64,000 nucleotides of DNA from Gammaproteobacteria bacterium (GCA_965222155.1 CBDCTH010000012.1:352001-416000); one strand, 5' to 3'; counted from the stretch's first letter, positions 25,853 through 42,243 are shown. The notes: generated by a model from the sequence alone, not told the origin. Made by a program: numbers and translations.

Positions 25853-25887
25853 AGTGACAACTCATTATAGTAAATAATTCTTGTTGT

Positions 25888-25964: not shown

Positions 25965-25970
25965 TTTTCA

Positions 25971-26030: not shown

Positions 26031-26090
26031 GTGCGTACCGGAGTTCAGATATTATACGCCAATAACACACAAATCGAGGCTGTATAGGAA

Positions 26091-26519
26091 GTGCTTGCTT
26101 CGAGCTTAGCGTTCAATTCACTACTTCTCATTTCCTGCCTGGTCATGGGCCTGGTTCTGGTGCGCTCGCGCATGCTCAGGAATGACCTATGGAAGGCGAC
26201 CCTGACCCCTCTCTCATTCATTATAGGGAGCGGCCTGTTACAGGAAAACAGCCGTGGCCGCCTGTCGACCAGGATTGGATACGTATCGATCTCCGTCTGT
26301 TCGATTCTGCTGGTGTGGGCGGTTGACCTGCTTGAGATCATCACGCTGGCTTCCCGGGCCTTTGCGACCTATTACTTCCTGCAGGCCCTGCTCGCCATCT
26401 TCTACAATTACAAGGATAGTCCTCCGATGGCGCGCGTGACGTTGGCCAATGAGATACTGTTCGTGACCCTCGCTATCATATTGGCCTACGTGATCGTATT
26501 CTCTATTCCCGCGGGTTGA
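26091..26519 (+). pseudogene. Internally deleted APC-like permease remnant
   Basis: LWKATLTPLSFIIGSG (N-terminal APC-like motif) joined directly to C-terminal IITLASRAFATYYFLQ...FSIPAG; only about 140 aa. Confidence 0.5.
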
Positions 26520-26555
26520 GCGCCGTGCCGGAGGTTGTAATTGGAATATGACAAC

Positions 26556-27785
26556 TTATTTGGCGCGCCTTAAATCAATGAAAGGTAATTTCACTACCCT
26601 GGCATTCACCAAACCTGTTTTATCTTTAACATGAAACTGAACGGTCACTTCCGTGTCCGGTTCGCAATATTCTTTTTCCAAGTGCCCGAAACCGATGACC
26701 TTTTGAATTGTAGGACTCCAGGCAATACTGGTCGCACGGCCAATCTTTTTGCCGTCTTTCGTCACCACTAACGGATACCATATCGGGGTTGGAACCACAA
26801 CCGGAGCCAAACCCTGTGCGGTATACATCTCAGCTATCCCTTGCCATTCAATCTGTAACCCTACCCGGTTGCGCCAAACACCTGTTTCTATTTCTTTTAA
26901 CAGTGCGGCTTTGCCCAGGAAATCACCGCTGTCAAAATCAACAAACCGGCCTGCTCCCAATTCAAATGGTGAAGCTTTATTTTCCGAATCCACTTCAATC
27001 GGCGCGCCAATCGCATCAGTCACCGCTCCGCCATTAGTGAAATCCGGTCCCGGAATGATCAAACCGGCTTCTATACGTGCGGTATCCAAAGCAAGGTAAC
27101 CCGCGGGTTTTATACCGTGGGCATCTCCTGCTTCCATTATCGCATCCCACAGAGCTGCACCATTGTCTTCAGCGACACATAATTCATAACCATGTTCGCC
27201 AGTGAAACCTTGCCGGGCAACCTCCACATCAACCCCTCCGATTTCTGCAATACGGATCCGGGAAAACCTGAAACCCGACCAGTCTTCACCCGTTGCGGCT
27301 TCCAGGACTGCCCGGGATTTTGGACCTTGTAATGAAAGGATCCCGCGTTCGTGAGTGACTTCTTTGATTCGTATGTCAAAACCCTCAGCATTTTGCATGA
27401 GCCAGCCGTGACTCGGATCACCGGTGATTCGGAACCTGTCCTCACTCATCCGGAATGCCATACCGTCGCTGACTACCTTGCCGTCATGATCGCACCACGG
27501 TGTATAAAACACCTGATTTACCTCCATTTTCCTTGCATCACGGGTAATGATATAGTTGGTAAACCGCGCTGCATCCGGACCGGAAATATCAAATTTCGAT
27601 AGCGGGGACATGTCAATGACTGCTACAGCTTCACGAATGGCCTTGAGTTCATCATCGAGACCGCTGAATACATCAACGACGTGATAGATATCCCAGGCAA
27701 TCCATCTCACGAATAGATTCAACGGCTCTGTGCGTGATTTAAACGGTGTTCCTGCAAAGCCGGTATTGTTTATACCTGTCCCCAT
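26556..27785 (-). CDS. GcvT-like folate-binding aminomethyltransferase family protein 1
   Basis: AIREAVAVIDMSPLSKF..SGPDA, YTPWCDHDGKVVSDG, LQGPKSR, RQGFTGEHGYE, ARIEAGL. Confidence 0.9.
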   Translation of the reverse strand: MGTGINNTGFAGTPFKSRTEPLNLFVRWIAWDIYHVVDVFSGLDDELKAIREAVAVIDMSPLSKFDISGPDAARFTNYIITRDARKMEVNQVFYTPWCDHDGKVVSDGMAFRMSEDRFRITGDPSHGWLMQNAEGFDIRIKEVTHERGILSLQGPKSRAVLEAATGEDWSGFRFSRIRIAEIGGVDVEVARQGFTGEHGYELCVAEDNGAALWDAIMEAGDAHGIKPAGYLALDTARIEAGLIIPGPDFTNGGAVTDAIGAPIEVDSENKASPFELGAGRFVDFDSGDFLGKAALLKEIETGVWRNRVGLQIEWQGIAEMYTAQGLAPVVVPTPIWYPLVVTKDGKKIGRATSIAWSPTIQKVIGFGHLEKEYCEPDTEVTVQFHVKDKTGLVNARVVKLPFIDLRRAK

Positions 27786-27810
27786 TCCTGAACGTCACCC
27801 CCGGGATTCA

Positions 27811-28860
27811 TCAGGGTTTCCCCAGACCGAACAACTGCACCATGTCACGCCGATATTGGATGGAGAATTTATCGGCGGGGATGGAGGTTTCCTCTGCGAG
27901 GTTTAACGGCACTGAATACGGTCTCTGACTTTCCACAACGACAACGTCCTCCGAGTTGGTTACCAACTGGTACTCGGCGTAATCCTCTACGGTCGCCCCC
28001 GGAATATTGGTGAGTGAGATCTGGTAGATGACTGTTTCCCCGGCGCTGACGGGTGAGGCAATATCGTAGAAATGGCTGGTCATTTCCTCCGTATAGTCAA
28101 CCTTTAGATCCGTGGCATAGGGATAGGTCAGGTCATGGGTGTAATAGACTTCACGCTCACCGATATTGTCGTCATTAAACCCTCTTTCCACTTCGATATA
28201 AGGCAATTCCATGTGCAGACCGTAGTCGGTACGCTCCAGAATATAATCTTCCAGCTGCGGCCGTTGCCGGTTTCCGAACGTCTTCATGTGTACCCAGGAA
28301 ATATGGGCAATATCATTGAAGTTTTCACAGTGGCGGCTGGCAGTGGCCTGCCATACCCCCTTGGGTATTTCGATCCTGAGCCAGCCGGCATCGTGATTTT
28401 CCAGCAACGGCCATTCGGGCAATGGCCGTGAGGATTGGTCTTTAAGACATGCCCATACCAGGCCATAACGTTCAACCGATTGATAGGTGGTTAAACACAT
28501 CCTGGCGGGAATGGGCATATTCTGATCTACATAGGACGGAATTTTTGTACACGCTCCCTGGTAGTTGTAATGATGACCGTGAAACGGACACACTACGTTA
28601 TTACCGCCGTCATCCATCCAGCCCTGGCTGAGTTTTGTCCCGCGGTGAGGGCATTGGTCTTTTGCAACCGTGGTTCCCTCCGGGGTTTTATAGATGACCA
28701 GGTCGGTATCCAGCAACCTGACCGCCAGGGGTTTGTCCTTGATCTCCGAGGTAAATGCTACCGGATGCCAGAAAGCAGCCAGGATATGCCAGTCATTTTC
28801 AGAAATACCGCTGGCAGCCGGATAATCTGTTGTGACTGAGTGGCTGGTGGGTAAATACAT
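27811..28860 (-). CDS. VanA/Ndm-like Rieske oxygenase (subtype A; probable start MYLPT at 28860)
   Basis: FWHPVAF, CPHRG...CPFHG, ENFNDIAHISWVH, ED..VVESQ.P, ADKFSIQYRR. Confidence 0.9.
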   Translation of the reverse strand: MYLPTSHSVTTDYPAASGISENDWHILAAFWHPVAFTSEIKDKPLAVRLLDTDLVIYKTPEGTTVAKDQCPHRGTKLSQGWMDDGGNNVVCPFHGHHYNYQGACTKIPSYVDQNMPIPARMCLTTYQSVERYGLVWACLKDQSSRPLPEWPLLENHDAGWLRIEIPKGVWQATASRHCENFNDIAHISWVHMKTFGNRQRPQLEDYILERTDYGLHMELPYIEVERGFNDDNIGEREVYYTHDLTYPYATDLKVDYTEEMTSHFYDIASPVSAGETVIYQISLTNIPGATVEDYAEYQLVTNSEDVVVVESQRPYSVPLNLAEETSIPADKFSIQYRRDMVQLFGLGKP

Positions 28861-28861
28861 A

Positions 28862-29839
28862 TCACACAATTCCAAAATCCATGCCGATGTCTTTTAAATG
28901 CCGCCGGTACTTCGAGGTAAATAAATCCGAACGCAAGTGCAGTTCTTCGCTCAGGTCCACGGGTAATAATTCAGGGCGCTGGGATTCAAGTATGGGAATG
29001 TCCTGACCGATAATCAGGCTGTGAAAGTCTGCGATATCCTGCTCGCTCAAATCCGCTGCGTAGTTATAAGCGGCGATAAAATGTGCCCATGACTTGTTTT
29101 CAGTCTCCGGCCTCACGGCAAACATCAGGACAAACTTTTCCTTGTTGCTGGGCGTGCCGATGTGTTTCACGAAGTAAACCGTTAACGGAGCCAGGATACC
29201 GAAGTCATACCAGGCATCCCCTCCTACCCCCGTGCCATCCGGGTCCGGTTGAAAATAACGCACATTTTTTACAAAATACCCATCTTCCGTATCTTCCACA
29301 CGGTAATCATCAATGACTGCGTGACTGGAATCCCCCAATATGCCGTCGTGCAGGATCGGAGGGTGCGACAGGTCCAGGAAGTTTTCCACTACCCGCGGGG
29401 CACCGGCGTTGATTTCATAAGGACCACAGGGAATCACGCGATAATCAGGTTCATTGAACTGGGGTAGATCAGGCAAAGGGCGTGAAGTGTCGCCGAGGTT
29501 CACCCAGATTAACCCGGCATGTTCCCTGGCCTGGTAAATGGCAGTCGCTCTGGCCTTGGCCGGCATCCTGATCTCGGGATGGGCCGGAATATACTCGCAC
29601 TGGCCTGCGTCATTATATTCCCAGCCGTGATAGGCGCAGCGAAGGCGGTTGTTGCAAACAGTCCCCAGGCTCAAACGTACTCCGCGATGGACACAGAGGT
29701 CTTTCCAGGCGCAGAGCCTGTCTTTTGAACGCCAGACCACCAGATCTTCACCCAGTACCGTGGCCGCGATCGGTTTTTCATCGGTCAAGGTCCCGGCCAA
29801 CCCGACAGGATGCCAATATTGTTTGATCACTTCAGTCAT
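28862..29839 (-). CDS. VanA/Ndm-like Rieske oxygenase (subtype C)
   Basis: YWHPV, CVHRG...CAYHG, GPYEINAGAPRVVENFLDLSHPPILH, QDIPILESQRP, YRRHLKDIGMDFG. Confidence 0.9.
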   Translation of the reverse strand: MTEVIKQYWHPVGLAGTLTDEKPIAATVLGEDLVVWRSKDRLCAWKDLCVHRGVRLSLGTVCNNRLRCAYHGWEYNDAGQCEYIPAHPEIRMPAKARATAIYQAREHAGLIWVNLGDTSRPLPDLPQFNEPDYRVIPCGPYEINAGAPRVVENFLDLSHPPILHDGILGDSSHAVIDDYRVEDTEDGYFVKNVRYFQPDPDGTGVGGDAWYDFGILAPLTVYFVKHIGTPSNKEKFVLMFAVRPETENKSWAHFIAAYNYAADLSEQDIADFHSLIIGQDIPILESQRPELLPVDLSEELHLRSDLFTSKYRRHLKDIGMDFGIV

Positions 29840-29854
29840 TATTTCACCTCGCTG

Positions 29855-31081
29855 TTACCCGGCGCGTTTGATATCGATGAAAGGCAGCCTTACAACCGTG
29901 GCATCAATCTGACCGGTTTCACGACCAACTTCAAATTCCACTGAAACTTCCGTACCGGGATCGCTGTGATCCGCATCGATAAATGCGAAACCGGCAATGC
30001 TGTTTGCAGCGGGGCTCCAGGCAATGCTGGTAGCCCGGCCGATTGTTTTGTTGTTCATCGTGATATTCAAGGGATACCAAACCGGTACAGGCACGACCAC
30101 CGGTGGCAAACCTTGTTTAGTAAACAATCCGGCAATTCCCTCCCAATCAATCAGTAACCCCCGCATTTTCCTGGCTGCCCCCGTTTCCTTTTCCCGCATC
30201 AGCGCCTCCTTGCCGATGAAGCCGGCTTTATCCAGATGTACGAAATTACCTATACGCATTTCATACGGCGACCTTTCGTCCTGCCTGTCAACTTCGATGG
30301 CCGCGCCGCGTTCCGTATCAGTACCTGCTCCCGTATAGTCGGGGCCCACAATGATCAACCCTGCTTCCATGCGCGCCACGTCATGGGCATGGAACCCGGC
30401 AGGCTGCAAACCGAAGCGTTCTGCGTGCCGGTAAACGGCATCCCAGACAGAGCTAGCACCTTCGTTCTCCACCCACAACTCACAACCATGCTCACCGGTA
30501 AACCCTTGACGCATGACGGCAACCTCAACACCATCAATTTCTATATGGCGGATGCGCGAGAAGGCAAAATCCGACCAGTCCTCACCTGTCGACGCTTCCA
30601 GCACAAGCCGTGATTTCGGTCCCTGTAATGCCAGGATGCCATAGTCATGGCTGATATCGATGATCTCTATATCAAATCCCCGTGCATGTTGATTAAGCCA
30701 GTGGTATTGGGGATCGGTGGAGATGCGAAATTTATCCTTCTCCAACCTGAATATCATGCCGTCACCCACGGTTTTTCCGTTGTCGTTGCACCAAGGTGAA
30801 TAATAGATCTGTCCGATCTGCTGACCGGTCATATCACGTGTCACCAGGTAATCCAGGAACCGTTCCGCATCGGGGCCTATAATGTCGTATTTCCCCAGCG
30901 GAGACATGTCTATGGTTGCGGCGGTGTTACGAATGGCATGGTATTCCGTGTTAAAACCGTTAAATGTATCCACTATGTGATACTTGTCCCAGGCAACCCA
31001 GCGCTGGTTAAAATTTAACGGTGCCGTTCGGGCATTAAACGGTGTGCCGACAAAATCGGTAGTTTGTACATGTACGCTCAA
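29855..31081 (-). CDS. GcvT-like folate-binding aminomethyltransferase family protein 2
   Basis: Clear paralog of 26556-27785: GTPFNART, IDMSPLGKY, LQGPKSR, RQGFTGEHG, ARMEAGL. Confidence 0.9.
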   Translation of the reverse strand: MSVHVQTTDFVGTPFNARTAPLNFNQRWVAWDKYHIVDTFNGFNTEYHAIRNTAATIDMSPLGKYDIIGPDAERFLDYLVTRDMTGQQIGQIYYSPWCNDNGKTVGDGMIFRLEKDKFRISTDPQYHWLNQHARGFDIEIIDISHDYGILALQGPKSRLVLEASTGEDWSDFAFSRIRHIEIDGVEVAVMRQGFTGEHGCELWVENEGASSVWDAVYRHAERFGLQPAGFHAHDVARMEAGLIIVGPDYTGAGTDTERGAAIEVDRQDERSPYEMRIGNFVHLDKAGFIGKEALMREKETGAARKMRGLLIDWEGIAGLFTKQGLPPVVVPVPVWYPLNITMNNKTIGRATSIAWSPAANSIAGFAFIDADHSDPGTEVSVEFEVGRETGQIDATVVRLPFIDIKRAG

Positions 31082-31191
31082 GGCATTTCTCCTGATAAAT
31101 TATTGACGTATCCATGATAAAAAAGGAATGTTTGCAAGTGAGGATTATTTGTCTGAAAGTCACATTTCCCTAATCTATACTAAACGTATAA

Positions 31192-32022
31192 ATGAATATT
31201 TTCACTAAGGACCAGCCATTTCAATTTGGCGATGCAGTTTTTCCGGCCGGAGGCCGTTATGGTCCTGTAACCCATGAGCATCTGGACATCTCTGTGATTC
31301 TTGAGGGTGAAGCAACATTTGTGATAGATGGAACAGAAAATCATTATTTATCCGGTACCGCAATATTTGCCTATTCAGAAGAATACTTTGAAGTGACCCT
31401 GCCAAAAGGCAAACGGCATGTTATATGCTGGTGTCATACCGGTGAACTGTCCATTCCGAAAAAATACAAACTCCAACTTAAATCCATAACCAACGCGCAG
31501 CCCGCATCGAAATTAATGATGTTATTAATAAAGGAAGGCATTAATTTGGATCATGGTGAGAGTGTCAATTTAAGCAGATTGCGAAATTCGCTGGGAGAAG
31601 CCGTGTTCAATGAATATTTCTACCGTGCCAATCTTAAGGAAGAAGACAGCATTTATCCTCCCGCGGTTGCGAGATCAAAACGATTTATAGAGAACAATTT
31701 TACCGGCGCCTGCGATTTGAACGATATTGGCACTCACGTGGGTTTAAACCCTCGTTATTTACTACGGTTATTTAAACGGCATGTTGGTATGACACCAATA
31801 CGCTATCTGTGGCGTTTACGGGCAGAAAGAGGTGTGTACCTGTTACACCAGTCCAAACTGAGCGTAAACCATATAGCTGAGCAATGTGGTTTTCAATCTC
31901 CCCATCATTTCTCACGCCATATAAAAGAACATTACGGTTTGTCTCCGATGAACCTGAGACAACAAACAAGGCAGCGGGATCCCTTTAAGTTTAATAATGA
32001 CGTGCCTGAAATACGTTATTAG
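31192..32022 (+). CDS. AraC-family transcriptional regulator
   Basis: Cupin-like N-terminus; C-terminal double HTH (YLLRLFKRHVGMTP...IAEQCGFQSPHHFSR..K..YGLSP); divergent from the GcvT/Rieske operon. Confidence 0.92.
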   Translation: MNIFTKDQPFQFGDAVFPAGGRYGPVTHEHLDISVILEGEATFVIDGTENHYLSGTAIFAYSEEYFEVTLPKGKRHVICWCHTGELSIPKKYKLQLKSITNAQPASKLMMLLIKEGINLDHGESVNLSRLRNSLGEAVFNEYFYRANLKEEDSIYPPAVARSKRFIENNFTGACDLNDIGTHVGLNPRYLLRLFKRHVGMTPIRYLWRLRAERGVYLLHQSKLSVNHIAEQCGFQSPHHFSRHIKEHYGLSPMNLRQQTRQRDPFKFNNDVPEIRY

Positions 32023-32036
32023 ATACATACGAAAGC

Positions 32037-33062
32037 TCAATACCCCCCTCCTTGCTGGATACCCAACTCTGACAATTTTCTTCTGTATGCGATAGATATA
32101 ATATCGGCCCGGATATGGAATTCCTGTGACAAATCCAACGGCAGGTACACCGGGTACTGGTTCTCAACTATCCTTCTATCTTCTTCGTTGACAACTTCCT
32201 GAAATTGCAACCAGTCAGAAACCGGTTTGTCTTTATCAAAGTTACGTGCCTTCAGCATGAAGATTCGTATTTTGTCTGCTGAGACAGGTGTTGCCACATC
32301 AAAAATATACTCAACACCAACGGAGCTTGTCACTTTCAAACATATCGCATAAGGCATGGTCAGGGTATATTCCGAAAGACATTCTTCTACTGTGCCTTTG
32401 TATTCAAATGTGTTAGCCGACAAAAACATGGTTTTTATCTGATAATAAAGTCCCTCTGCTGTTTGCTCTACGTCAAATTTACCGATCTCCGGATAATCCC
32501 GGGGTGCAAATGTATCAGCATGTATCCATGCGGCATGTGCGATATCAAGGAAGTTTTCCGTGTGTCTGGCTGCCGAAGTTTGCCATTCCGTGCTTAATTC
32601 GATTACCTGATTTTCTGATGTTTCGAGCGCATTCCAGTCAGGTAAAGTAAATCGGGGTTCGGAACCCAGGCAGGTCCAGATTAATCCATAGCGCTCGAGC
32701 GCCTGAAAGGTGTTCAAGCGTAAATTAAGAGAAACCTTTGCATCATGGCCCTCTGCCGGGATCAATGTACACTGCCCTGAACTGTCGTAATGCAGACCAT
32801 GGTAAGCACACACCAGTCTATCGTCTTTCAACCAGCCCTGACTCAGGTCTGCGCCACGGTGCGGACAATTCCGTTTTGCAACAGTAATACCTCCGTTGGT
32901 ACGGTATATTATTAATGGGACATCAAGTAACGTTGCAGCGTACGGCTTGTCTGAGACCTCACTGCTGAAGGCGACAGGATGCCAGCAGTTCGCCAGTATG
33001 TTCCAGTTGTTCTCTGAAAAAGTACTTTTTACGGGTTGGATACAACGGTCAGTACTTATCAT
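32037..33062 (-). CDS. VanA/Ndm-like Rieske oxygenase (subtype A)
   Basis: WNILANCWHPVAF, CPHRG...CAYHG, RHTENFLDIAHAAWIH, EEDRRIVENQ, ADIISIAYRR. Confidence 0.9.
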   Translation of the reverse strand: MISTDRCIQPVKSTFSENNWNILANCWHPVAFSSEVSDKPYAATLLDVPLIIYRTNGGITVAKRNCPHRGADLSQGWLKDDRLVCAYHGLHYDSSGQCTLIPAEGHDAKVSLNLRLNTFQALERYGLIWTCLGSEPRFTLPDWNALETSENQVIELSTEWQTSAARHTENFLDIAHAAWIHADTFAPRDYPEIGKFDVEQTAEGLYYQIKTMFLSANTFEYKGTVEECLSEYTLTMPYAICLKVTSSVGVEYIFDVATPVSADKIRIFMLKARNFDKDKPVSDWLQFQEVVNEEDRRIVENQYPVYLPLDLSQEFHIRADIISIAYRRKLSELGIQQGGGY

Positions 33063-33081
33063 TGACAGTTCTCCAGTCGTT

Positions 33082-34257
33082 CTACACGGCTACGGATTTT
33101 TGTGTTCCCAGTCGATATACAATATATATTAAAATTAACCATGACAGCATTGTTGTAGACGCTGAGGCGAGCCCCAGCCCGGCATAGCCATACCACTCGA
33201 TCAGATTGCCCGCAATCATGGGTCCAAAAGCGAATCCCAGTAAATACACCGAACCTGCAGCGGCGGCCAATCTGCCCTTTTTATCCAATGCGGCAGCCAG
33301 GCCAAATAAATACGGAACTGCAAAGTAAAATGATATAAAAGATGACATAACCGCAACAATGTAGACCGTTGCATTGCTATTCAAACAAAGAACCATACTC
33401 GTTGCGGTATACCAGATACAAAAAATTGAAATAGGAATAAAGCGTCCTATCCGCACGTTTAACCAGGTAGCCAGACCGGCGCCTATTATTCCAACACCAC
33501 TGCCAACCGTTAATACAAACCCAACCTGAGTAGTTGTCAATCCACTGCGAACACCTAATTGTTCAAAAAACGTGTAAACGGCTGCTCCTGCCGCTATAAA
33601 TATAAATATTCCGGCTAATGTACAAATTCCCAACATTGTCGGTATTCTGTTCTCAGCCACAGGCTTGTTTTTTACTATCGTCGGCTTATCCGATGGTAAA
33701 CCTCTCAGGAAAAACACGAAAATAATCATAACGATTGCGGTCAGGCCGAAAATTCCCCGATGGGCATACATATCTGTCAGATAACCACCGGCAGAAAAAA
33801 GGATAACGCTGACCAGCGCCCAGGCGACTTGAAAGTAACCATAAACTTTGTCCGGATTACGGGAATGCGAGGCAACTGCCGCCAGTGAGATGGCATAAAT
33901 TATACCTTCGCCGATACCGGCCAGGCATCTTACGATGATCATGACAGTCAGGGTAGCCACCTGGACTGATACGACATTTGCAGTTATTGCCAGACAAACC
34001 GCATAAAAGCATATCGTACGATAAGGGAATCTGTGTAAAACCGGTGCAACCAGAATAGCCGTAATGGACAACACCAGAAATTCAGCGAATGCGATATAAC
34101 CTGCTTGCTGGGCAGAGAGCGTCAGTCCTGTTATCACGCCCCCGATCACCAGAGGTGATAGCTGGGTAATTACACCACCAATTACCTGTGCAGCTATTAC
34201 TGCGTAGACGAAAAATAATTTATCACCGGATTTATGTGGAGAATCCGGCACGTTCAA
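33082..34257 (-). CDS. MFS transporter
   Basis: About 12 hydrophobic segments; paralog of 37777-38913 (VIAAQV.GG..TQ.SPL, NPDK.YGY.QV.WA, VPYLFGLAAALD). Confidence 0.85.
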   Translation of the reverse strand: MNVPDSPHKSGDKLFFVYAVIAAQVIGGVITQLSPLVIGGVITGLTLSAQQAGYIAFAEFLVLSITAILVAPVLHRFPYRTICFYAVCLAITANVVSVQVATLTVMIIVRCLAGIGEGIIYAISLAAVASHSRNPDKVYGYFQVAWALVSVILFSAGGYLTDMYAHRGIFGLTAIVMIIFVFFLRGLPSDKPTIVKNKPVAENRIPTMLGICTLAGIFIFIAAGAAVYTFFEQLGVRSGLTTTQVGFVLTVGSGVGIIGAGLATWLNVRIGRFIPISIFCIWYTATSMVLCLNSNATVYIVAVMSSFISFYFAVPYLFGLAAALDKKGRLAAAAGSVYLLGFAFGPMIAGNLIEWYGYAGLGLASASTTMLSWLILIYIVYRLGTQKSVAV

Positions 34258-34275
34258 TTTCGTACTTATTTACCT

Positions 34276-36567
34276 TTACCAGTTATAACCAATCTCAACA
34301 CCGTAACTACGCGGCCTGTTTGGCACAGCGGTTTGGAGCCCGATACTTGTGTAATCGAATGTTTGTACACGGTACTTGGTATCCGAAAGGTTACGCCCCC
34401 AACCAGCGACCTCCAGCTTTTCATTCAACATTCGATAAGATATCCGGGCGCCAACCAGCCAACGGGCTTTTGACCGTACGGCATGATGATTTTCCACGCT
34501 GTGAAACATTTCATCGGTCCAACTCCAGTCAAAATTGAATGCCAGGGTACCTTCCGTTGTGGTTTGTAACGGCCACTCGTAAGCCAGATTACCAACAAAT
34601 TTCCACTCCGGCGCATACACGTTGTCATGCCCGGCAAGATCCTGACCCGTAATAGCACGTGTAAATTGCTTGAATTCCGTATTCAGATATGCCATGCCAA
34701 AGTTCAGATCCAATCTGTCGATGAGGCGTGTCTTCAGTTCCGCTTCCATACCGTAATAATCTGCCTGGTCCGCATTGCCGAGCACAATCAGCAGGTTGCC
34801 GAATGAACCAATGAAATTATCAAATACCTGCAGGTCTTCATAATCATAATAAAATCCGGATACATTTAATTGCGCCCTGCCATCAAACAGGGTTGATTTA
34901 AACCCGGATTCAACGGCAAGAATAGTTTCTTCATCATAGATGTTGAACTCTGCAGGATCACCAAAACCAACATTGATCCCTCCACTCTTGTAACCGGTGC
35001 CGACATGCGCATAAACCAGTAAATCTTCAGTAGGCGTAAAATCCACACCCACTTTCCACGTCACGTCATCGTATGTGCGTTCACCACTGGTGCCCGGATC
35101 AAACACACTTAACCCTGTTCCGAAGCCTACAGGGTAAGGCGGGTCAAATAAATCGCTGTTATGATAAATTTCGATTTCATCCCTCGTGTAACGGAGACCC
35201 CCATAGACCTTGAATAACTCATTGATCTGGTATCCCAGGTTGGCAAAAGCTGCAAAATGGTCCGATTCCTGTTTGTAATTTGAATACGTGATGAAACCAA
35301 AGAATTCGTATTCGTTCGTCGACGGCAATTCCTCCGATGCATAATAAAGACCCACTATCCAGTCCCAGGGGCCTTCGCTTGTCGATGTCAATCGAACCTC
35401 CTCTGAAAACGTTCTGGTTTCATGCCGATAGATGTTATGGCTGACTGCACTGGGGCCTCCATCGTCGTCACCTGTCATAGCTCGCTGAAACTTATCATAG
35501 GCAGTAATGGATGTGGCCCTGAAACCATCAAAGTCCCAGTCAATCCGCATATAACCGCCAAGGGTTTCAATATCGGTGGGACCGAAAAGATCAAAGTCAC
35601 CGGCAGTAGGATCGCCACGTTCTTCAATTCCGTCCGGGTCCCGGTAACCATCAAAATTGATACAGTCGTCTCTTACCGTGGCATCACAGTCGGTTGCAAA
35701 TGTATTAGGGTCCACGGTACCGACCTGCTGGTACTGAAATCCGCTGGAATGGTCCTGGGATCCATGTACATTAAATAGAATTTCAATGTTCTCTTGCGGC
35801 GTCCATAAGGCCATGCCACGCCAGTAATACTGATCCGTATCGTTAAACGTACCGCCAATCGTCCCCGGTATGGTAGACCTGCCTTCCATCCAGCCATCAT
35901 CATTCTGGTAGGTTCCCGCGACTCGCAGGGAAAGATTTTCCGTTACCCCACCCGTAACTGCGCCTTCGAACCGCACGGCGTCATAGTTACCATAGCCGAT
36001 GGTACCGTACCCATGAAACTCCTGCTCAGGCTTGTTGGTAATATAGTTGATTGCGCCGGCAGTGGCGTTACGCCCGTACAGTGTGCCTTGCGGTCCTCGC
36101 AAAACCTCCACGCGCTGCATGTCAAAAGGCACCAGCGTATGGGCAAAAATGCTGCTCATGTAAACTTCATCTGAATAGACACCGACTGTCGTATTCGCGT
36201 TTCCGGCAAAATCCACGCTTCCTGAGCCACGAATGATGGTTTTTGCAAACTGGTTTCCCGATGCAGCTTCGACCTGGACACCCGGCAGATATTGACCCAG
36301 TTCGTTGGAAGTAATCAGGTTGCGATTCTTGATTTCCTCGCCGGAAAATGCCGTGATTGAAATGCTGACGTCCTGCAGGCTTTCTTCACGCTTCTTTGCG
36401 GTGACAATCACTTCTTCGAGAATATCGGCGGGAACATTTATGGGTACAACAATAATCAGAAAGACTGCGGAACAGACAAAGCGGAAGTAAATGCGAGAAC
36501 ACAGGTTAAACTTCATAAGACCCCCTAATAATTTGAAATCCGAGTCGTGAATCGTATTACACACCAT
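34276..36567 (-). CDS. TonB-dependent receptor (start possibly MKFNL, a little downstream)
   Basis: LEEVIVTAKKREESLQDV, RVEVLRGPQGTLYGRN, C-terminal GYNW. Confidence 0.92.
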   Translation of the reverse strand: MVCNTIHDSDFKLLGGLMKFNLCSRIYFRFVCSAVFLIIVVPINVPADILEEVIVTAKKREESLQDVSISITAFSGEEIKNRNLITSNELGQYLPGVQVEAASGNQFAKTIIRGSGSVDFAGNANTTVGVYSDEVYMSSIFAHTLVPFDMQRVEVLRGPQGTLYGRNATAGAINYITNKPEQEFHGYGTIGYGNYDAVRFEGAVTGGVTENLSLRVAGTYQNDDGWMEGRSTIPGTIGGTFNDTDQYYWRGMALWTPQENIEILFNVHGSQDHSSGFQYQQVGTVDPNTFATDCDATVRDDCINFDGYRDPDGIEERGDPTAGDFDLFGPTDIETLGGYMRIDWDFDGFRATSITAYDKFQRAMTGDDDGGPSAVSHNIYRHETRTFSEEVRLTSTSEGPWDWIVGLYYASEELPSTNEYEFFGFITYSNYKQESDHFAAFANLGYQINELFKVYGGLRYTRDEIEIYHNSDLFDPPYPVGFGTGLSVFDPGTSGERTYDDVTWKVGVDFTPTEDLLVYAHVGTGYKSGGINVGFGDPAEFNIYDEETILAVESGFKSTLFDGRAQLNVSGFYYDYEDLQVFDNFIGSFGNLLIVLGNADQADYYGMEAELKTRLIDRLDLNFGMAYLNTEFKQFTRAITGQDLAGHDNVYAPEWKFVGNLAYEWPLQTTTEGTLAFNFDWSWTDEMFHSVENHHAVRSKARWLVGARISYRMLNEKLEVAGWGRNLSDTKYRVQTFDYTSIGLQTAVPNRPRSYGVEIGYNW

Positions 36568-36630
36568 ACTATAATAAAAAGAATCTTGTTAAAGTAACAT
36601 GCTTGGAATACACAAAATCATATCCTGGAT

Positions 36631-37656
36631 TCACTCACGGCACCAATCATCCAATCCAGCCAGGTAAGCAGTCTTTTCTTCGTCCGAGGCATAAGAACAG
36701 GAAAAACTGTTTCGGACCAATTGGATGATATCGTCCACACCAAGATTGAACGTCTCAGCCAGTTGAGTGAAATTTGTATTTAAATCCGTTTGAAAAAAAG
36801 GAGGGTCATCGGAGTTTACCGTAACGGTAGCGCCTCTGTTTCTCAATTCAATAATCGGATGTTCTGCAATCGACTCATAAACATTAATCGAAACATTGCT
36901 TACCGGACAAAGAGTCATGGGAATATCATTCTCGACAATATGGTTGACCAGTTCATTATCCCGTATTGCCTGGTTGCCATGGTCAATCCGGTCCACGTTC
37001 AGGTCATTAACCACATCCCAGACGCCTTCAGGTCCTGCAGCATATTCCTCACCACAATGGGCAGATAATTTAAAGCCGAGTTCCCTCGCGCGAGCAAACG
37101 CATCTTTGTGAACACCGGCAGGATAACCCACCTCCTGACAATCCAATCCAATTCCAAGGATCCCGACTTCGTCTTTATAGGCTGCAATTTCATCAACATA
37201 GTTCAGGCTTCGTTCCGGACTGATGGTCCGATCAATGTCGGCAATAAAATAAAGATCAAGACTGAATTCTTCCTTTACCTGCTGACGGCCACGGGCCAGT
37301 CCTTTCATAATCGTATCCAGTTCCACCCTGCCTTCATGGGCAGCCGCATAGGTAAACATCACTTCACGCCGAATGATGTTCTGTCGTTGCATGTCCTTGC
37401 CCAATTCCAGAGCTATCTCGTAATAATCGGTTTCCGTAAATAACACGCCGGTGGTCACTTCCCATTTCTGCAAAAATTCTTCAAGATCATTGAACCGGTA
37501 CCACTCGATTGCGCCCTTAACGTCCGAAAAAGGAAGCTCCACATTATTACGCCGTGCATATCTCAACAGTAATTCCGGGGGAACCGAATCCAAGTGTATA
37601 TGCAACTCTGCTTTTGGGATTCCCCGGATAAATTGTTTTATATCGTCGGCCGGCAT
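36631..37656 (-). CDS. Adenosine/adenine deaminase family protein
   Basis: PKAELHIH, AHCGEE, RIDHG, LCPVSN, NSDDP. Confidence 0.9.
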   Translation of the reverse strand: MPADDIKQFIRGIPKAELHIHLDSVPPELLLRYARRNNVELPFSDVKGAIEWYRFNDLEEFLQKWEVTTGVLFTETDYYEIALELGKDMQRQNIIRREVMFTYAAAHEGRVELDTIMKGLARGRQQVKEEFSLDLYFIADIDRTISPERSLNYVDEIAAYKDEVGILGIGLDCQEVGYPAGVHKDAFARARELGFKLSAHCGEEYAAGPEGVWDVVNDLNVDRIDHGNQAIRDNELVNHIVENDIPMTLCPVSNVSINVYESIAEHPIIELRNRGATVTVNSDDPPFFQTDLNTNFTQLAETFNLGVDDIIQLVRNSFSCSYASDEEKTAYLAGLDDWCRE

Positions 37657-37776
37657 GAAAGTAATAATTATCGACTGAGTTGACTGAATGTAACACTCTT
37701 AAGGAAACATTATCAATGCGAGCCAACTACGTCAATATTGCGATGAACTCGTATTGCCTGAAGACTGAATTAGTGG

Positions 37777-38913
37777 CTACAAATTTCTGACTACAACCAA
37801 CAATAATATCCAGGCCAGGATTGTGGCTATAACGGCTGCAACACCCAAGCCGATATAGTCATACCACTCGATCATCGTGCCGGCAAACGCCGGTCCTACG
37901 GCAAAACCCAGTAAATACGCTGATCCCGCTACCGCCGCCCAGCGGCCTTGCTGGTCCAATGCCGCTGCCAGGCCAAACAGGTAGGGGACAGAGAAATAGA
38001 AAAATACTACTGATAGAACCAGGGCAACCACATAGATTACAGGATGGGTATTAACACATAACACGATGGCAATAATTGAGAACGCAACCGAGAATACCGA
38101 AATAGGAACAGCTCGGCCCTTACGTATGTTCAACCAGGTTGCCAGAACTGCGCCGCTGAAACCAACGGCTGACCCTGTGGTCAGGGCATAGCCGATCTGG
38201 TTCGTAGACAGTCCTGCCCGTTCACCCAACGGCGCAGTGAAGGTATATATGGCCGCGGATGCGGTCAGGTAAATAAAAATTCCCGCTAACGTGACGATAC
38301 CCATCCAGAGCGGCGCAGCGTTGTGATTTTTATTAACTGATTGTGTCGGTGCCGTAACACCGGTCGGCAGCCACCTCAGAAAAATTATCAGGACAATTGT
38401 GATGCAGGCGATCATGCCGTATATACCCCGGTGGGCGAATATATCGGTAAGGTAGCCTCCTGCGGTAAACAACAAGGTGCTCAATACTGCCCAGGTCACC
38501 TGGATATAACCATACAACTTGTCCGGGTTGGCGGAACGTGACGCCACCGCGGCCAGTGATGCGGCATACACCAAGCCCTCGCCGACGCCGGCTATACATC
38601 TCATTATCACGATGAGATACAAATCGGTTAATAATATTGAAACAACCTGGGCACCAACGGCTAGACTCGCGGCATAAAGACACAGCGACCGGTATGACAG
38701 TCTCGGCAAAACCGGCGCTATCACGATTGCGGTGAGCGATAAAACGATAAATTCTGCAAATGCGACATAACCGGCCTGTTGTTCCGTTAATTCAAGACCG
38801 ATAATAACGCCACCCACCACCAGGGGAGACATCTGCGTCACCAATCCGCCGGCCACCTGGGCGGCAATTACCGCAGTAACAAATTTTAGCGGGTCACCCG
38901 CGCGGGTCTGCAC
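37777..38913 (-). CDS. MFS transporter
   Basis: About 12 hydrophobic segments; paralog of 33082-34257. Confidence 0.85.
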   Translation of the reverse strand: MQTRAGDPLKFVTAVIAAQVAGGLVTQMSPLVVGGVIIGLELTEQQAGYVAFAEFIVLSLTAIVIAPVLPRLSYRSLCLYAASLAVGAQVVSILLTDLYLIVIMRCIAGVGEGLVYAASLAAVASRSANPDKLYGYIQVTWAVLSTLLFTAGGYLTDIFAHRGIYGMIACITIVLIIFLRWLPTGVTAPTQSVNKNHNAAPLWMGIVTLAGIFIYLTASAAIYTFTAPLGERAGLSTNQIGYALTTGSAVGFSGAVLATWLNIRKGRAVPISVFSVAFSIIAIVLCVNTHPVIYVVALVLSVVFFYFSVPYLFGLAAALDQQGRWAAVAGSAYLLGFAVGPAFAGTMIEWYDYIGLGVAAVIATILAWILLLVVVRNL

Positions 38914-38919
38914 TGTTAC

Positions 38920-39903
38920 TCAACTCGTTCCATAATTTAATCCCATCTCTTTCAACCAGCGCCGGTATACGTTAGAAGATTTGTCGGCCGGTTGGTGTAA
39001 TTCTGCGGTGGGATCCAAAGGTAAACATTTTGGCCGTTGCGATTCCAGAACTGCCTTATCCTGGTAGAAGATCGTGTCCTGAAAATCCCGGAAATATTCT
39101 TCCGGCTCGCCATGACCATAGTTCATGGCAAGGACAAACCAGGCGCGGATACGAGTTTCTTCCTTCGATTGTATTGACATCAGGATCAAATCGGATGGTT
39201 TCTCGCTGGCGGCGCCGGGCTCCTTGGTGAGCATGACGGTCAGCGGCCGCAGTACCCGGTAGGAATAGGCAACTTTGGTGCCTTCCTCGCTGGTCACATT
39301 GGCCCTAGGTTGATAGACGGTCGCATTGGTCACTCTGATTTCGCTGTCTATCACCTCAACATCGTAATCATCCATTTCCGTGTAGGGCTCCTCCCCCAGG
39401 TAACCGGTATGTACAAAGGGAAAGTGCGACAGGTCCAGAAAATTCTCTACGGCTCGGGGGCCACTGGTCTCAACGTCATAGGGCCCGGTGATCACCAGGT
39501 GATAATCCTCATCTACGCCGTGAAACAATGGCACGTCACCAGCCGGATCACCCAGGCACACCCACACCAGGTCGTATTTCTCCCGCACCTGCAGTCGGGT
39601 CGTCCTGGCCCTTTCCGAGATAGGCTGATCAGGATGGGCGGGCATCCTGATGCAGCGGCCATCGGAATTAAAATGCCAGCCATGATAGGGGCAAACTACC
39701 GTGTCGCCATTTCTGATTTCGCCTAAAGACAACTTGGAGCCACGGTGGGGACAGCGGTCCAGCCAGGCGTGTATCTCACCGTGACTGCGCCAGATAAGAA
39801 TATCCCGTTCCAACAATTGTGTTGCGAACTTATCACCGTCCGCCAGCTCCCTGGCGTTCGCTACCGCATGCCAATCATTGAGCATGATAATATCGTTTGT
39901 CAT
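38920..39903 (-). CDS. Rieske oxygenase (subtype C), NdmC-like catalytic domain with intact Rieske cluster
   Basis: LNDWHAVA, CPHRG...CPYHG, SGPRAVENFLDLSHFPFVHTGYLGEEPYTE, FQDTIFYQD, YRRWLKEMGLNYG. Confidence 0.9.
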   Translation of the reverse strand: MTNDIIMLNDWHAVANARELADGDKFATQLLERDILIWRSHGEIHAWLDRCPHRGSKLSLGEIRNGDTVVCPYHGWHFNSDGRCIRMPAHPDQPISERARTTRLQVREKYDLVWVCLGDPAGDVPLFHGVDEDYHLVITGPYDVETSGPRAVENFLDLSHFPFVHTGYLGEEPYTEMDDYDVEVIDSEIRVTNATVYQPRANVTSEEGTKVAYSYRVLRPLTVMLTKEPGAASEKPSDLILMSIQSKEETRIRAWFVLAMNYGHGEPEEYFRDFQDTIFYQDKAVLESQRPKCLPLDPTAELHQPADKSSNVYRRWLKEMGLNYGTS

Positions 39904-39920
39904 CTTATCTGCTCGTGGGT

Positions 39921-40982
39921 TTAACTTGTAGCCGGTGCACCCAGGTTAAATTTACCGGCCAGTGCTTTCCTGTATTCCAGTGACATACGATCAGCGGGAA
40001 TATGGATCTCTTCCCGCAAATCCAGCGGCAGATCTTCCGGTGATTGTGCTTCCACCAGGGGCTGGTCTTCTTTATTTATGTCTATCGTTTCCTGTATCAG
40101 CTCATCCGTGGCCGGATCACCGGAGTTGTCTGCCAGGATTTGGAAAATGCCGCTCTCGTGCGCGGAGATAGGGCAGACCGTATCCAATATCACCTGTATA
40201 TAATCGGACCCCTGCACATCCACTTCCAGCAGGGTGGAAAACGGAAACGTTAGTTCGTAGCTGTAAACGACTTCACGGTCCTGCAAATCATCTCTCCCGT
40301 CAGGAAAGCGGTTGCCCAGTTCCAGGTAAGGTAATCGAAAGTTGAGGCCGTAATCAGTCTGTTCCACCTGGTATAACGGATAGGCTGCATCCATTTCACC
40401 GCCGAAAGTGGCGCCATGCACCCAGGGGAAGTGCGCCACGTCGTTAAAGTTTTCGACGTGACGGCCCGCTGCTACCTGCCACTTCCCCGGAGGAACAAAC
40501 ATGGATTGATATTGAGAAGTTTCCAGATGGCGCCAGTAAGGTAACGGCCAGGCAGGGTTATCTTTCAGACACACCCAGATAATGCCGTAGCGTTGTTCCG
40601 TCCGGTAGGTTTGCAGCCGCAACTTCTCCGGTATTCTCACATCGGTGTCGGCGATGGACGGTATCTTTCGACAAACACCTTGACCATCATAATGCAAGCC
40701 ATGCATGGGACAAACCAGCAGGTCATCCTGCATCCAACCCAGGCTCATCCTGGTGCCCCTGTGCATACACTGGTCTTTCGCGACCGTGACGCCTTCACTG
40801 GTCCGGTAAATCACCAGGTTTACGTCCAGTAATTTGGCGGCGACAGGTTTGTCCCCGATATCATGGAGAAATGCAACAGGGTGCCAGAAACCGGCCAGTA
40901 TGTGCCAGTCGCTTTCCCGAAAGGTGCAGTGACGGGGTAACTCGGTATTTACCTGAGTTGAATGGTCTGTAGCCAGAAACAT
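39921..40982 (-). CDS. VanA/Ndm-like Rieske oxygenase (subtype A)
   Basis: DWHILAGFWHPVAF, CMHRG...CPMHG, RHVENFNDVAHFPWVH, EDQPLVEAQ, ADRMSLEYRK; paralog of 27811-28860. Confidence 0.9.
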   Translation of the reverse strand: MFLATDHSTQVNTELPRHCTFRESDWHILAGFWHPVAFLHDIGDKPVAAKLLDVNLVIYRTSEGVTVAKDQCMHRGTRMSLGWMQDDLLVCPMHGLHYDGQGVCRKIPSIADTDVRIPEKLRLQTYRTEQRYGIIWVCLKDNPAWPLPYWRHLETSQYQSMFVPPGKWQVAAGRHVENFNDVAHFPWVHGATFGGEMDAAYPLYQVEQTDYGLNFRLPYLELGNRFPDGRDDLQDREVVYSYELTFPFSTLLEVDVQGSDYIQVILDTVCPISAHESGIFQILADNSGDPATDELIQETIDINKEDQPLVEAQSPEDLPLDLREEIHIPADRMSLEYRKALAGKFNLGAPATS

Positions 40983-41204
40983 GAACTCTTACCACATATT
41001 TTGTATTTGTTATCGGTTAAAAACGAAACCAACCCAAGCTGGATTATAGAGGCAGACTAAGGTTCAAGTATATGACTATCGTGTAGGGATTCGTATCTGA
41101 AATTCACTTCACGCTCTGCAAGACGAATGCAACCAATCAGGCAAACCCTGGCCCGGATTTTTGATGTGCGCCCTCCATGGCGTACACCCATACGCGGACT
41201 CTCC

Positions 41205-41229
41205 GGGGACGGATTTCAAATCCGTCCCC
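41205..41229. repeat. GGGGAC-type palindrome, copy 3
   Basis: ggggacggatttcaaatccgtcccc, identical to the 12903-12927 core. Confidence 0.85.
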
Positions 41230-41313
41230 TTATGCACTGACAGATTTGTCTGGTTAAGGGGTGAGCCGGAAAAAGAAAAAGACACTTAACGTGTCTTTTT
41301 CCCAGCGAACGAC

Positions 41314-42243
41314 TCAACAAGGAAGTTGTGGCTGCTGGTCGCCTTCCACCTTGCCTGAAATCGGCGCCAACGGCAGCGCATCATCACCCGGCTCTATGGT
41401 AAAAGTGAAATCGAGCGAACACCAGGGCCCGGTCACTTCAGGGTCCGGCGCAGGTACGTTTTCGTGATGAATATAATCACCGATCAGAGCTTTCGTCACG
41501 CCGAACTGCGCGTCGGTTTCCAGGTAGGGGTCGTCATTGACATAAACCTGTGAAATATGCGTTTTATAACCCGGCTTGTGAATCAGGAAATGCATATGTG
41601 CAGGCCTCATATTGGCGCGCCCTTGCACCCTGAGAAGGTCGCCGACCGGCCCGTTCACGGGAACCGGGTACGCCGCCGGTTTCACGGTACGAAAATTGAC
41701 TTGGCCGTTATTATCAGTTCGGAATTTGCCGCGAAGATTCATATCAGCCTGGACAGGGTCCTGGTTCTCGTACAAGCCTTCTGCTGACGTGTTCCACACA
41801 TCAATCTCTGCATCGACGACCGGATTATCTTCGTTATCCCTGATCCTTGCAGTCACGAATAACGGTTCGCCGATTGTCGGCGAGCGCACGATTGACCCGC
41901 CGCTCTCCGTCTCCGGCGAGTGTGCGCGCCAGAACGGGCCTAGCAGGTTGGCCGTGGTTTCTCTCTGGCCGCGGCCGTTGTTCAGGAGGCACACCAATGA
42001 CGATAGACCAAGCGTACCGGCCAGAAGCACCACTTCATTGTGACTTTTATTCGTTAGTTGCCCTGCCTGCGCGATAAGTGCGCATCCCTGACGAAATTCC
42101 GCCTCCGTCAGTTGTACTTCACGGGCAAAATTGTGTAAATGCCGTACTGCAGCGGATAGAAGCTCTTTAAGACGAGGATCGTTAATGCGCTCAAGTTCGC
42201 TCAATACCGCTTCAGTGACCTGTTCCTGGTTTTTAATGATCAT
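41314..42243 (-). CDS. Intradiol ring-cleavage dioxygenase (catechol/hydroxyquinol 1,2-dioxygenase family)
   Basis: RHLHNFAREVQLT, LLGPFW, GLYENQD, YPVPVNGPVG, RPAHMHF (Tyr/His Fe ligands), DPYLETDAQFGV. Confidence 0.9.
   Translation of the reverse strand: MIIKNQEQVTEAVLSELERINDPRLKELLSAAVRHLHNFAREVQLTEAEFRQGCALIAQAGQLTNKSHNEVVLLAGTLGLSSLVCLLNNGRGQRETTANLLGPFWRAHSPETESGGSIVRSPTIGEPLFVTARIRDNEDNPVVDAEIDVWNTSAEGLYENQDPVQADMNLRGKFRTDNNGQVNFRTVKPAAYPVPVNGPVGDLLRVQGRANMRPAHMHFLIHKPGYKTHISQVYVNDDPYLETDAQFGVTKALIGDYIHHENVPAPDPEVTGPWCSLDFTFTIEPGDDALPLAPISGKVEGDQQPQLPC

Follow-up and report, generated by a model that had tools for sequence, protein, structure and literature searches.

A gammaproteobacterial gene island with five Ndm-clade Rieske oxygenases, two GcvT-family proteins and an ADA-family deaminase: a candidate pathway for N-methylated purines

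The window, i.e., the whole stretch of 64,000 nucleotides (nt) analyzed here, is from a Gammaproteobacteria bacterium (GCA_965222155.1, CBDCTH010000012.1:352001-416000). At positions 26556-40982 it carries an island with genes for five Rieske oxygenases (R1 to R5), two GcvT-family proteins, two MFS carriers, a TonB-dependent receptor, an ADA-family deaminase and an AraC-family regulator. We propose, with a probability of roughly 0.5, that the island serves the catabolism of purine-type bases with N-methyl groups, which are taken up, N-demethylated and deaminated while the one-carbon (C1) unit is captured on tetrahydrofolate (THF). Most likely, such an island adds folate and deaminase parts to a known kind of Ndm-type pathway. 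The sequences directly show which genes are present, that the metal ligands are intact, how the genes are grouped into operons, to which families the proteins belong and how far their association is conserved; the details follow below.

The predicted course of events is as follows. The TonB-dependent receptor would carry the substrates across the outer membrane, MFS1 and MFS2 across the inner membrane. Each of the five Ndm-clade Rieske monooxygenases would hydroxylate a different N-methyl group, some perhaps a ring position instead, with electrons supplied by a reductase encoded elsewhere. GcvT1 and GcvT2 would load the C1 unit, either formaldehyde or an N-hydroxymethyl intermediate, onto THF as 5,10-methylene-THF. 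The latter would be oxidized via methenyl- and formyl-THF, and the formate-tetrahydrofolate ligase Fhs would yield formate and ATP. The adenine-deaminase-like enzyme, a guanine deaminase and a cog0402-type amidohydrolase would turn the aminopurines left after demethylation into hypoxanthine or xanthine, and AraC would govern the divergent operons. We infer from the sequences to which class the substrates belong, that the reaction is an N-demethylation, that the GcvT proteins capture C1 and that Fhs takes part in this way.

The oxygenases and their closest relatives

The gene map is based on a list of open reading frames (ORFs) and on Pfam scans of the window. The gene inventory of an earlier, sequence-only reading of this DNA turned out to be exact in its coordinates. 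All genes of the island except that of AraC are on the minus strand:

26556-27785, minus: GcvT1, GCV_T (7.8e-57) and GCV_T_C; last gene of the GcvT2-R2-R1-GcvT1 operon
27811-28875, minus: R1, NdmA-like Rieske oxygenase, Rieske and VanA_C; 14-nt overlap with R2
28862-29839, minus: R2, SxtT/NdmC-like Rieske oxygenase, Rieske and VanA_C; metal ligands intact
29855-31081, minus: GcvT2, GCV_T (1.8e-58) and GCV_T_C; first gene of the operon, divergent from AraC
31192-32022, plus: AraC-family regulator, HTH_18 (3.9e-22)
32037-33062, minus: R3, NdmA-like Rieske oxygenase, Rieske and VanA_C
33082-34257, minus: MFS1, inner-membrane carrier, MFS_1 (6.4e-21)
34276-36567, minus: TonB-dependent outer-membrane receptor, Plug and TonB_dep_Rec_b-barrel
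36631-37656, minus: ADA-family deaminase, A_deaminase (1.4e-70); TIGR01430 with 270 bits, cut-off 216.55
37777-38913, minus: MFS2, inner-membrane carrier, MFS_1 (3.2e-20)
38920-39903, minus: R4, SxtT/NdmC-like Rieske oxygenase, Rieske and VanA_C
39921-40982, minus: R5, NdmA-like Rieske oxygenase, Rieske and VanA_C; first gene of the R5-R4-MFS2 unit

The spacing suggests four units, GcvT2-R2-R1-GcvT1 (intergenic gaps of 15, -14, and 25 nt), R5-R4-MFS2, the ADA gene alone, and receptor-MFS1-R3. The GcvT and MFS pairs, described as paralogous in the sequence-only reading, are 54% and 58% identical, respectively; R2 and R4 share 39.5%, and R1, R3 and R5 share 40-46% mutually.

All five R proteins exceed the Pfam cut-offs for Rieske and VanA_C and have the build of class IA, alpha-only Rieske oxygenases (VanA/DdmC/Ndm type). 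In an alignment (A2) the CxH...CxxH ligands, the ENFxDxxHxxxxH motif and the downstream Asp are kept in every one of them. None looks decayed because cluster and metal ligands are complete throughout. For family placement the proteins were ranked against all solved structures, a ranking which stands in for a tree with NdmA, NdmB, NdmC, VanA, and DdmC. The only full-length solved relatives of each R protein are NdmA, NdmB, SxtT and GxtA (SxtDIOX), with E-values from 1e-26 to 1e-65. The dicamba O-demethylase DdmC matches over the Rieske half only (1e-12 to 1e-22), and the oxygenases for carnitine, stachydrine and glycine betaine match even more weakly. Over their full length the five are closer to NdmA and NdmB than to O-demethylases. 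A grouping with aryl O-demethylases, which the sequence-only reading had named as fatal to its own proposal, did not emerge; by structure ranking, which is weaker than a tree, the oxygenases fall on the N-demethylase/Sxt side.

Two subgroups are discernible. R1, R3 and R5 are NdmA-like and align with NdmA over about 310 residues (1e-35 to 7e-43). R1 matches NdmA with 3e-36, GxtA with 2e-30 and, over the Rieske half only, DdmC with 7e-14; R3 matches NdmA with 6e-36, GxtA with 4e-34 and NdmB with 6e-31; R5 matches NdmA with 7e-43 and NdmB with 9e-35. R2 and R4 are SxtT/NdmC-like: R2 matches SxtT with 1.8e-57 and NdmA with 8e-39, R4 matches SxtT with 5.7e-65 and NdmA with 2.3e-39. Among the best 120 matches listed for each of R4 and R5 there are only generic names.

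The relation to NdmC requires some detail. Three motifs ascribed to NdmC in the sequence-only reading are all present in R4; beyond these motifs, R4 was compared with proteins in the NdmC position. R4 shares motifs and 36-37% identity with Rieske-less proteins of NdmC/NdmD/NdmE-like clusters. Roseobacter-group bacteria frequently have homologues of R5 (55-62% identity). The one in Ruegeria (L057) is preceded by an AraC gene and followed by a VanB-type reductase, a Bmp/PnrA-type ABC importer and two Rieske-less R4-like proteins; the cluster also holds a 575-aa Rieske-reductase fusion and a glutathione S-transferase (GST). This is the architecture of NdmC, NdmD and NdmE as given in a passage of PMC4408171, according to which NdmC lacks a Rieske domain, NdmD has an additional one and NdmE is GST-like. 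According to the same source, ndmCDE homologues whose function is not known are found chiefly in Sinorhizobium and Mesorhizobium (PMC4408171). The pSymA cluster of S. meliloti, annotated by tblastn, carries the same NdmC/NdmD/NdmE-like set; its Rieske-less NdmC-like protein is 37% identical to R4, with an alignment gap at the Rieske cluster-binding region. Because these Rieske-less proteins of pSymA and Ruegeria resemble R4, we consider R4 and R2 as Rieske-bearing cousins of NdmC-type proteins which are about equally near to SxtT. An NdmCDE complex as such is not encoded in the island: R2 and R4 have Rieske domains of their own, and genes for an NdmD-like protein and a GST are absent. R2 and R4 may demethylate or hydroxylate, i.e., two of the five enzymes could be hydroxylases.

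Deaminases, GcvT-family proteins and the fate of the C1 unit

The protein encoded at 36631-37656, a member of TIGR01430, appears most like the free-base adenine deaminases of the ADA family. Among solved structures it is closest to the chains 3ou8/3pan/3pao/3pbm and 3rys at 1e-56; the next match is at 1e-31. We take these chains to be the adenine (not adenosine) deaminases Pa0148 of P. aeruginosa and AAur1117, which reportedly also accept N6-methyladenine. A second ADA-family gene, 35% identical, is located elsewhere in the genome; the island copy therefore is an extra one. The cog0402-type amidohydrolase upstream of the island is equally near to MTA/SAH deaminase, guanine deaminase, 8-oxoguanine deaminase, and atrazine chlorohydrolase. 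Guanine-deaminase-like genes adjoin R-like genes in L008, L012 (Bacillus) and L064, and Bmp/PnrA-type importers recur in homologous oxygenase clusters of other taxa. Deaminases and importers together point to purine-type substrates. To this extent they bear out the methylpurines named in the sequence-only reading, the substrate class itself being extrapolated.

GcvT1 and GcvT2 have the GCV_T folate-binding domain and the C-terminal barrel of the GcvT superfamily. The solved relatives of GcvT1 are the GcvT domain of the trimethylamine N-oxide (TMAO) demethylase Tdm (3e-46), GcvT (2e-40), DmdA (3e-28), and LigM (6e-15); LigM and DesA are the weakest matches within the GcvT family. The cut-offs for assigning a specific function are not reached by either protein: 153.8 and 138.9 bits for the glycine-cleavage T protein TIGR00528 (cut-off 235.85) and, for the equivalogs, 150 and 141 bits for DmdA (410), 83 and 75 for LigM (580), and 101 and 81 for DesA (800). 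The best 120 matches listed for GcvT2 carry generic names only. A separate GcvT paralogue, 33% identical, is present elsewhere in the genome, and neither gcvH nor gcvP is among the annotated genes of the window. D107 of GcvT2 aligns with Asp96 of the T. maritima T-protein, which we take to be a catalytic residue, and with the DDG of Tdm. It is invariant in an alignment of 13 family sequences (A1).

The company kept by this GcvT subfamily is informative. We inspected the 80 best-scoring loci across phyla, 26 of which are shorter than 12 kb. An oxidative demethylase-type gene is in the flank of 64 of the 80, counts which are descriptive and not independent because the loci were chosen by score and many are kin. 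The partners are flavin amine oxidases (49 loci), GbcA-type Rieske oxygenases (25, usually directly downstream), and Ndm-type Rieske oxygenases (10). In L071, from the same genus, the order is receptor, MFS, ADA-family, amidohydrolase, amine oxidase, MFS, amidohydrolase, and the GcvT1 orthologue; fhs is adjacent and convergent to the latter, and the second uptake/deamination module of our window lies alongside. Five Acidimicrobiia loci (L074, L079, L081, L086, L097) combine NdmC/D/E-like genes with Bmp, amidohydrolase and GcvT. As a separate observation, a recurrent unit at L119:6605-12338 and in about 25 similar loci (Pyrinomonadaceae and others) combines a GcvT-family protein with a GbcA-type Rieske oxygenase and with either a single flavin amine oxidase or two of them. 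L119 has two amine oxidases, GcvT and a Rieske oxygenase. The unit adjoins amino-acid permeases; we assign no function to it.

Passages of PMC5520151 describe DmmD as the separately encoded GcvT-domain protein of dimethylamine monooxygenase, and report GcvT domains in Tdm as well as in dimethylglycine oxidase and sarcosine oxidase. The partner enzymes of the GcvT subfamily yield C1 at the level of formaldehyde, and this fits the role of the GcvT domain in DmmD and Tdm as presented there (PMC5520151).

What may happen to the C1 unit is indicated by the remainder of the genome. No glutathione-dependent class-III alcohol (formaldehyde) dehydrogenase reaches the cut-off in the genome (best score 59.7 versus 544 bits), and with PF02882 the assembly yielded no canonical FolD, only two weak matches. 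Contig C10 contains an FchA equivalog (333.6 bits, cut-off 275). Its gene and a 285-aa ORF, which matches PF02882 (THF_DHG_CYH_C) weakly and which we presume to be MtdA-like, are divergently oriented (G000:C10:12079-13824; L151:4080-5825). The two point to a THF C1 module as in methylotrophs which substitutes for FolD, with the reservation that the contig may stem from contamination. Fhs, FchA and the putative MtdA-like ORF together make up a complete predicted route in the assembly from methylene-THF to formate and ATP. MetF is present in three copies; hence the C1 genes do not separate the C1-capture model from the methyl-transfer model considered below.

A more daring version of our proposal, which we put forward tentatively, is a methylotrophy on purine methyl groups by bacteria of sponges and of other marine habitats. 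Here the cognate GcvT protein would take the N-hydroxymethyl intermediate, not free formaldehyde, straight onto THF. The methylpurines would originate from host alkaloids or from modified RNA or DNA of digested prey and would enter through the dedicated TonB receptor. If this handover were true, each methyl group would provide reducing power and, via Fhs, one ATP, and a glutathione-dependent formaldehyde pathway would not be needed.

Conservation, regulation and surroundings of the island

A search with R4 yielded 56 loci, and a genome survey covered 40 relatives, 22 of the same genus and 18 others. Three Gammaproteobacteria metagenome-assembled genomes (MAGs; L002, L005, L006) are syntenic at 83-99%. 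A shorter form, R5-R4-receptor-MFS-AraC-R2-R1, is found in L007 and L009. In Porticoccaceae (L017) R1, R5, R4, receptor, MFS, AraC, R3, ADA and GcvT are together at 48-62% identity. The TonB receptor stays with the cluster in L007, L009, L017, and L072 (51-57%), the intradiol dioxygenase gene next to R5 stays beside it in L001-L003, and in L001 and L003 fhs is the neighbor of a reduced cluster. R5-type genes (E up to 1e-50) occur in 15 of the 22 same-genus genomes and in none of the 18 others, GcvT1/2-type genes in 8 of the 22. The ADA gene is present in 5 of 22 other same-genus genomes, always within the cluster near GcvT2. The island therefore is modular, with a core of oxygenases and transport and with GcvT, ADA and R3 as accessory parts. 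The conservation of the neighborhood, which the sequence-only reading had suggested as a check, is real in L002, L005, L006, and L017; it does not always include GcvT.

The AraC gene is kept at its position in L002, L005, L006, L007, L009, and L017; of 9 Roseobacter-type loci, 8 likewise have an AraC gene adjoining the homologue of R5. Upstream of R5 two hairpins with T runs separate it from the intradiol dioxygenase gene. An Rfam scan of 6000-50000 with E up to 1 returned two tRNAs only and no riboswitch that would name a ligand, and a pattern scan of 25800-41400 for promoters and terminators gave counts near those of shuffled sequence. A TGAAWKTMACA-like motif (at most 1 mismatch) occurs 20 times in the window versus 8.15 expected, and 9 of the 20 are within 31-41 kb. 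Sites at 31154, 36589, 37656, 37685, 41098 and others lie in intergenic DNA ahead of AraC/GcvT2, the receptor, ADA and R5. The motif may be an AraC operator; it is weak, and the pattern was derived from the same regions. A search of sequencing runs found 20 DNA holders across 9 studies, and no RNA holders among those listed.

The larger island around the cluster begins after recA, alaS, an aspartokinase gene and tRNA-Ser; it also carries a zinc alcohol dehydrogenase gene and tRNA-Arg. The following neighbors are relevant, and fhs and the guanine deaminase gene indeed lie upstream as the sequence-only reading had it:

12945-14357: cog0402-type amidohydrolase
14458-15825: guanine deaminase, TIGR02967 with 450.2 bits, cut-off 375.4
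12945-19969: second uptake/deamination module, i.e., both preceding genes with a second TonB receptor and an MFS carrier
21782-23458, plus: Fhs, formate-tetrahydrofolate ligase, FTHFS (1.4e-263)
41314-42243: intradiol dioxygenase, neighbor of R5

Several other features are recorded for completeness. Directly after tRNA-Ser, at 7453-8610, is a GbcA-like Rieske oxygenase (Ring_hydroxyl_A) adjoined by a SnoaL-like protein fused to CDGSH iron-sulfur fingers (region 7453-9481). A 166-aa ORF at 20252-20752 matches positions 112-228 of the 314 of TIGR02486 only, i.e., the middle of a reductive dehalogenase (89.7 bits), and looks fragmentary. The 3' 152 nt of fhs (23307-23458) are duplicated at 24704-24855 with 95% identity. 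The repeats flank an insert of about 1.4 kb with a ParE-toxin gene, the ORF of which (24412-24855) runs into the duplicated tail. It has the appearance of a toxin-antitoxin cassette that entered at the fhs 3' end with target duplication. Another pair, a Gp49-like (HigB-type) toxin and an HTH antitoxin, occupies 42286-42928; its neighbors are the intradiol dioxygenase gene on one side and another TonB receptor on the other. At 53321-63889 an IS21-type element (IstA/IstB) is followed by a block of low GC content (0.42-0.45) with PLD-like, HATPase_c_3, ResIII/DEAD helicase and PAPS-reductase-domain genes, which looks like a defense island.

Objections, rival explanations and comparison with known systems

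A number of findings weigh against an N-demethylating purine pathway with C1 capture. No gene for a reductase or ferredoxin was found in the island. A dedicated NdmD-type reductase is absent from the window, and the candidates in the genome are weak and distant; the best are a PaaE-like protein of 360 aa, a MOSC-FNR-ferredoxin protein and a 91-aa [2Fe-2S] ferredoxin. With E-values of 1e-57 to 1e-65, R2 and R4 resemble the C-hydroxylases SxtT and GxtA more closely than NdmA (1e-39). The specificity positions, located by residue alignment of R5 to NdmA and its N282Q/F286L variant, differ in all five: the pair is N282/F286 in NdmA and Q/L in NdmB, yet T/N in R5, Q/N in R1 and R3, Q/F in R4, and H/I in R2. 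The substrate-positioning pair of NdmA or NdmB thus is not found in any R protein, and the pockets therefore should be unlike those of the caffeine enzymes. In four genomes of the same genus (G004, G005, G010, G022) the R5 cluster has no GcvT nearby, so GcvT is accessory and not obligatory. L072 and L073 have a GcvT relative and deaminase-like genes without an oxygenase. The FchA and MtdA-like genes are on a separate contig of an assembly with an estimated contamination of 7.28%, and the 80-locus counts carry the reservation stated above. Of the position-specific demethylase set in the sequence-only reading, membership in the Ndm/Sxt clade with full-length matches stands; the leaning of R2 and R4 to SxtT/GxtA and the deviating specificity pairs weaken the case for such a set. 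A predicted complex of R2 with GcvT2 (alignments A3 and A1 as input) scored 0.00 and has no bearing either way.

The rival which survives best retains methylpurines as substrates and makes the GcvT proteins standalone methyltransferases of the DmdA/LigM type. They would transfer activated methyl groups, e.g., those on cationic ring nitrogens, to give 5-methyl-THF; the Rieske enzymes would treat the unactivated methyls and set formaldehyde free. We deem this possible, at rather low odds. The fold includes true methyltransferases, as the matches of GcvT1 to DmdA and LigM illustrate, and MetF, needed for the oxidation of methyl-THF, is available in three copies. Two conserved paralogues favor substrate-specific enzymes over a generic trap for formaldehyde. 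In L073 (Chloroflexia MAG) the gene of a 51%-identical GcvT immediately precedes those of a B12-binding corrinoid protein and of three MtmB-like methyltransferases, which keeps direct methyl transfer alive, and L072 has the same transporters and deaminase-like genes without an oxygenase. With additional genes for a Bmp-type ABC importer, for two amidohydrolases and for an FAD subunit of the xanthine dehydrogenase type, L073 (752-15671) may represent a corrinoid-dependent demethylation route for a purine-like compound. On the other hand, the closest characterized relatives, Tdm and GcvT, form methylene-THF, 64 of the 80 loci have oxidases or oxygenases which generate formaldehyde or imines, and the Asp aligned to Asp96 of the T-protein, a presumed catalytic residue, is invariant in the family alignment. 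The passage of C1 to methylene-THF and on to Fhs, as the sequence-only reading saw it, accordingly gains from the GcvT/oxygenase operon, these loci and the THF route, and it loses from the corrinoid context of L073.

Less probable still is a substrate other than a purine, i.e., another N-heterocycle or guanidine-type alkaloid (cyclic guanidines, pterins, triazine-like compounds) from host or diet. R2 and R4 would act as C-hydroxylases, while ring opening or deamination would fall to the amidohydrolases. This unlikely explanation draws on the SxtT/GxtA matches of R2 and R4, the cog0402 amidohydrolase being equally near to several deaminases and to atrazine chlorohydrolase, specificity positions unlike those of NdmA and NdmB, and the lack of a functional name among the best 120 matches listed for R4 or R5. 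It is countered by a guanine deaminase above the equivalog cut-off, by the adenine-deaminase-like ADA protein, by Bmp/PnrA-type importers in homologous clusters, and by R4 motifs common to proteins in the NdmC position.

A GcvT-fold enzyme with Fhs is also the pattern of ligM/ligH clusters. Nevertheless, an O-demethylation of methoxy-aromatics, lignin-type or halogenated and tyrosine-derived, with VanA-type oxygenases, a LigM-like GcvT, a LigH-like Fhs and intradiol cleavage is highly improbable: VanA_C in all five oxygenases, the intradiol dioxygenase kept beside the cluster and the reductive-dehalogenase-like fragment are outweighed by DdmC matches limited to the Rieske half versus full-length NdmA/NdmB matches, by LigM and DesA as the weakest GcvT-family matches, by the two terminator-like hairpins which part the dioxygenase gene from R5, and by ADA and guanine deaminase genes which would have no role.

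We return to the proposed catabolism of N-methylated purines. Methylated purines are present in all cells, in modified tRNA and rRNA, mRNA caps and DNA, and as alkaloids in plants and marine invertebrates. To our knowledge, their bacterial catabolism is almost unexplored beyond caffeine degradation in a few soil pseudomonads. In the literature searched, with subscription journals and supplementary files outside it, a pairing of a Rieske demethylase with a GcvT/aminomethyltransferase was not found (lignin, dmm and SAR11 papers only), and on methylguanine or methyladenine as substrates of Rieske demethylation there were caffeine and DNA-damage papers only. MAGs of uncultured Gammaproteobacteria, among them APA_bin_93, are close relatives. 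In passages of PMC11706023 a MAG of the APA_bin name series is from the sponge Aplysina aerophoba, and sponge-symbiont lineages are described in Aldehydirespiratoraceae; according to a passage of PMC13143886 sponges contain methylated purines, e.g., 1-methylisoguanosine. A marine, sponge-associated bacterium is thus a reasonable but indirect conclusion, and the host-associated origin guessed at in the sequence-only reading is to be rated in the same manner.

If the proposal is true, caffeine-type demethylases would extend to a large marine, multi-phylum family, and the ndmCDE-like clusters of rhizobia and of the Roseobacter group, so far unexplained, would acquire a function. It would also establish a new partnership between a Rieske oxygenase and a free-standing, folate-binding GcvT protein, in which C1 is conserved that elsewhere is detoxified as formaldehyde. 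For biocatalysis, five differently tuned N-demethylases or hydroxylases would be on offer.

Which known systems come close? The Alx cluster of P. putida CBB5 with NdmA, NdmB and NdmCDE has, like the island, several position-specific Rieske monooxygenases of the same clade (E to 7e-43). Both have the same metal-ligand motifs, an AraC-type regulator and importers alongside, and a purine-type substrate, the latter predicted for the island. In contrast to CBB5, the island is without an NdmD reductase and an NdmE GST, and R2 and R4 possess the Rieske domain which NdmC lacks in the account of PMC4408171. CBB5 handles C1 with the glutathione-dependent frmA/frmB, whereas the island has two GcvT-family proteins and Fhs instead. 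Purine deaminases and a TonB receptor are added in the island, and the specificity positions differ. SxtT and GxtA (SxtDIOX), the best solved relatives of R2 and R4 over the full length (1e-57 to 1e-65), are C-hydroxylases of cyanobacterial saxitoxin biosynthesis acting on a tricyclic bis-guanidinium; the context of the island, with importers, deaminases and folate enzymes, is catabolic, and the window shows no further sxt-type genes. DmdA, LigM and DesA share the fold and the association with an Fhs-type C1 gene; they are weaker matches than GcvT and Tdm and need no oxygenase partner. DmmD and, in their C-terminal domains, TMAO demethylase, dimethylglycine oxidase/dehydrogenase and sarcosine oxidase have the same GcvT fold beside or fused to an enzyme which releases C1 from N-methyl groups. 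Compared with these acceptors, the GcvT proteins of the island are free-standing, they come as two paralogues, and their would-be partner is an Ndm-clade Rieske oxygenase.

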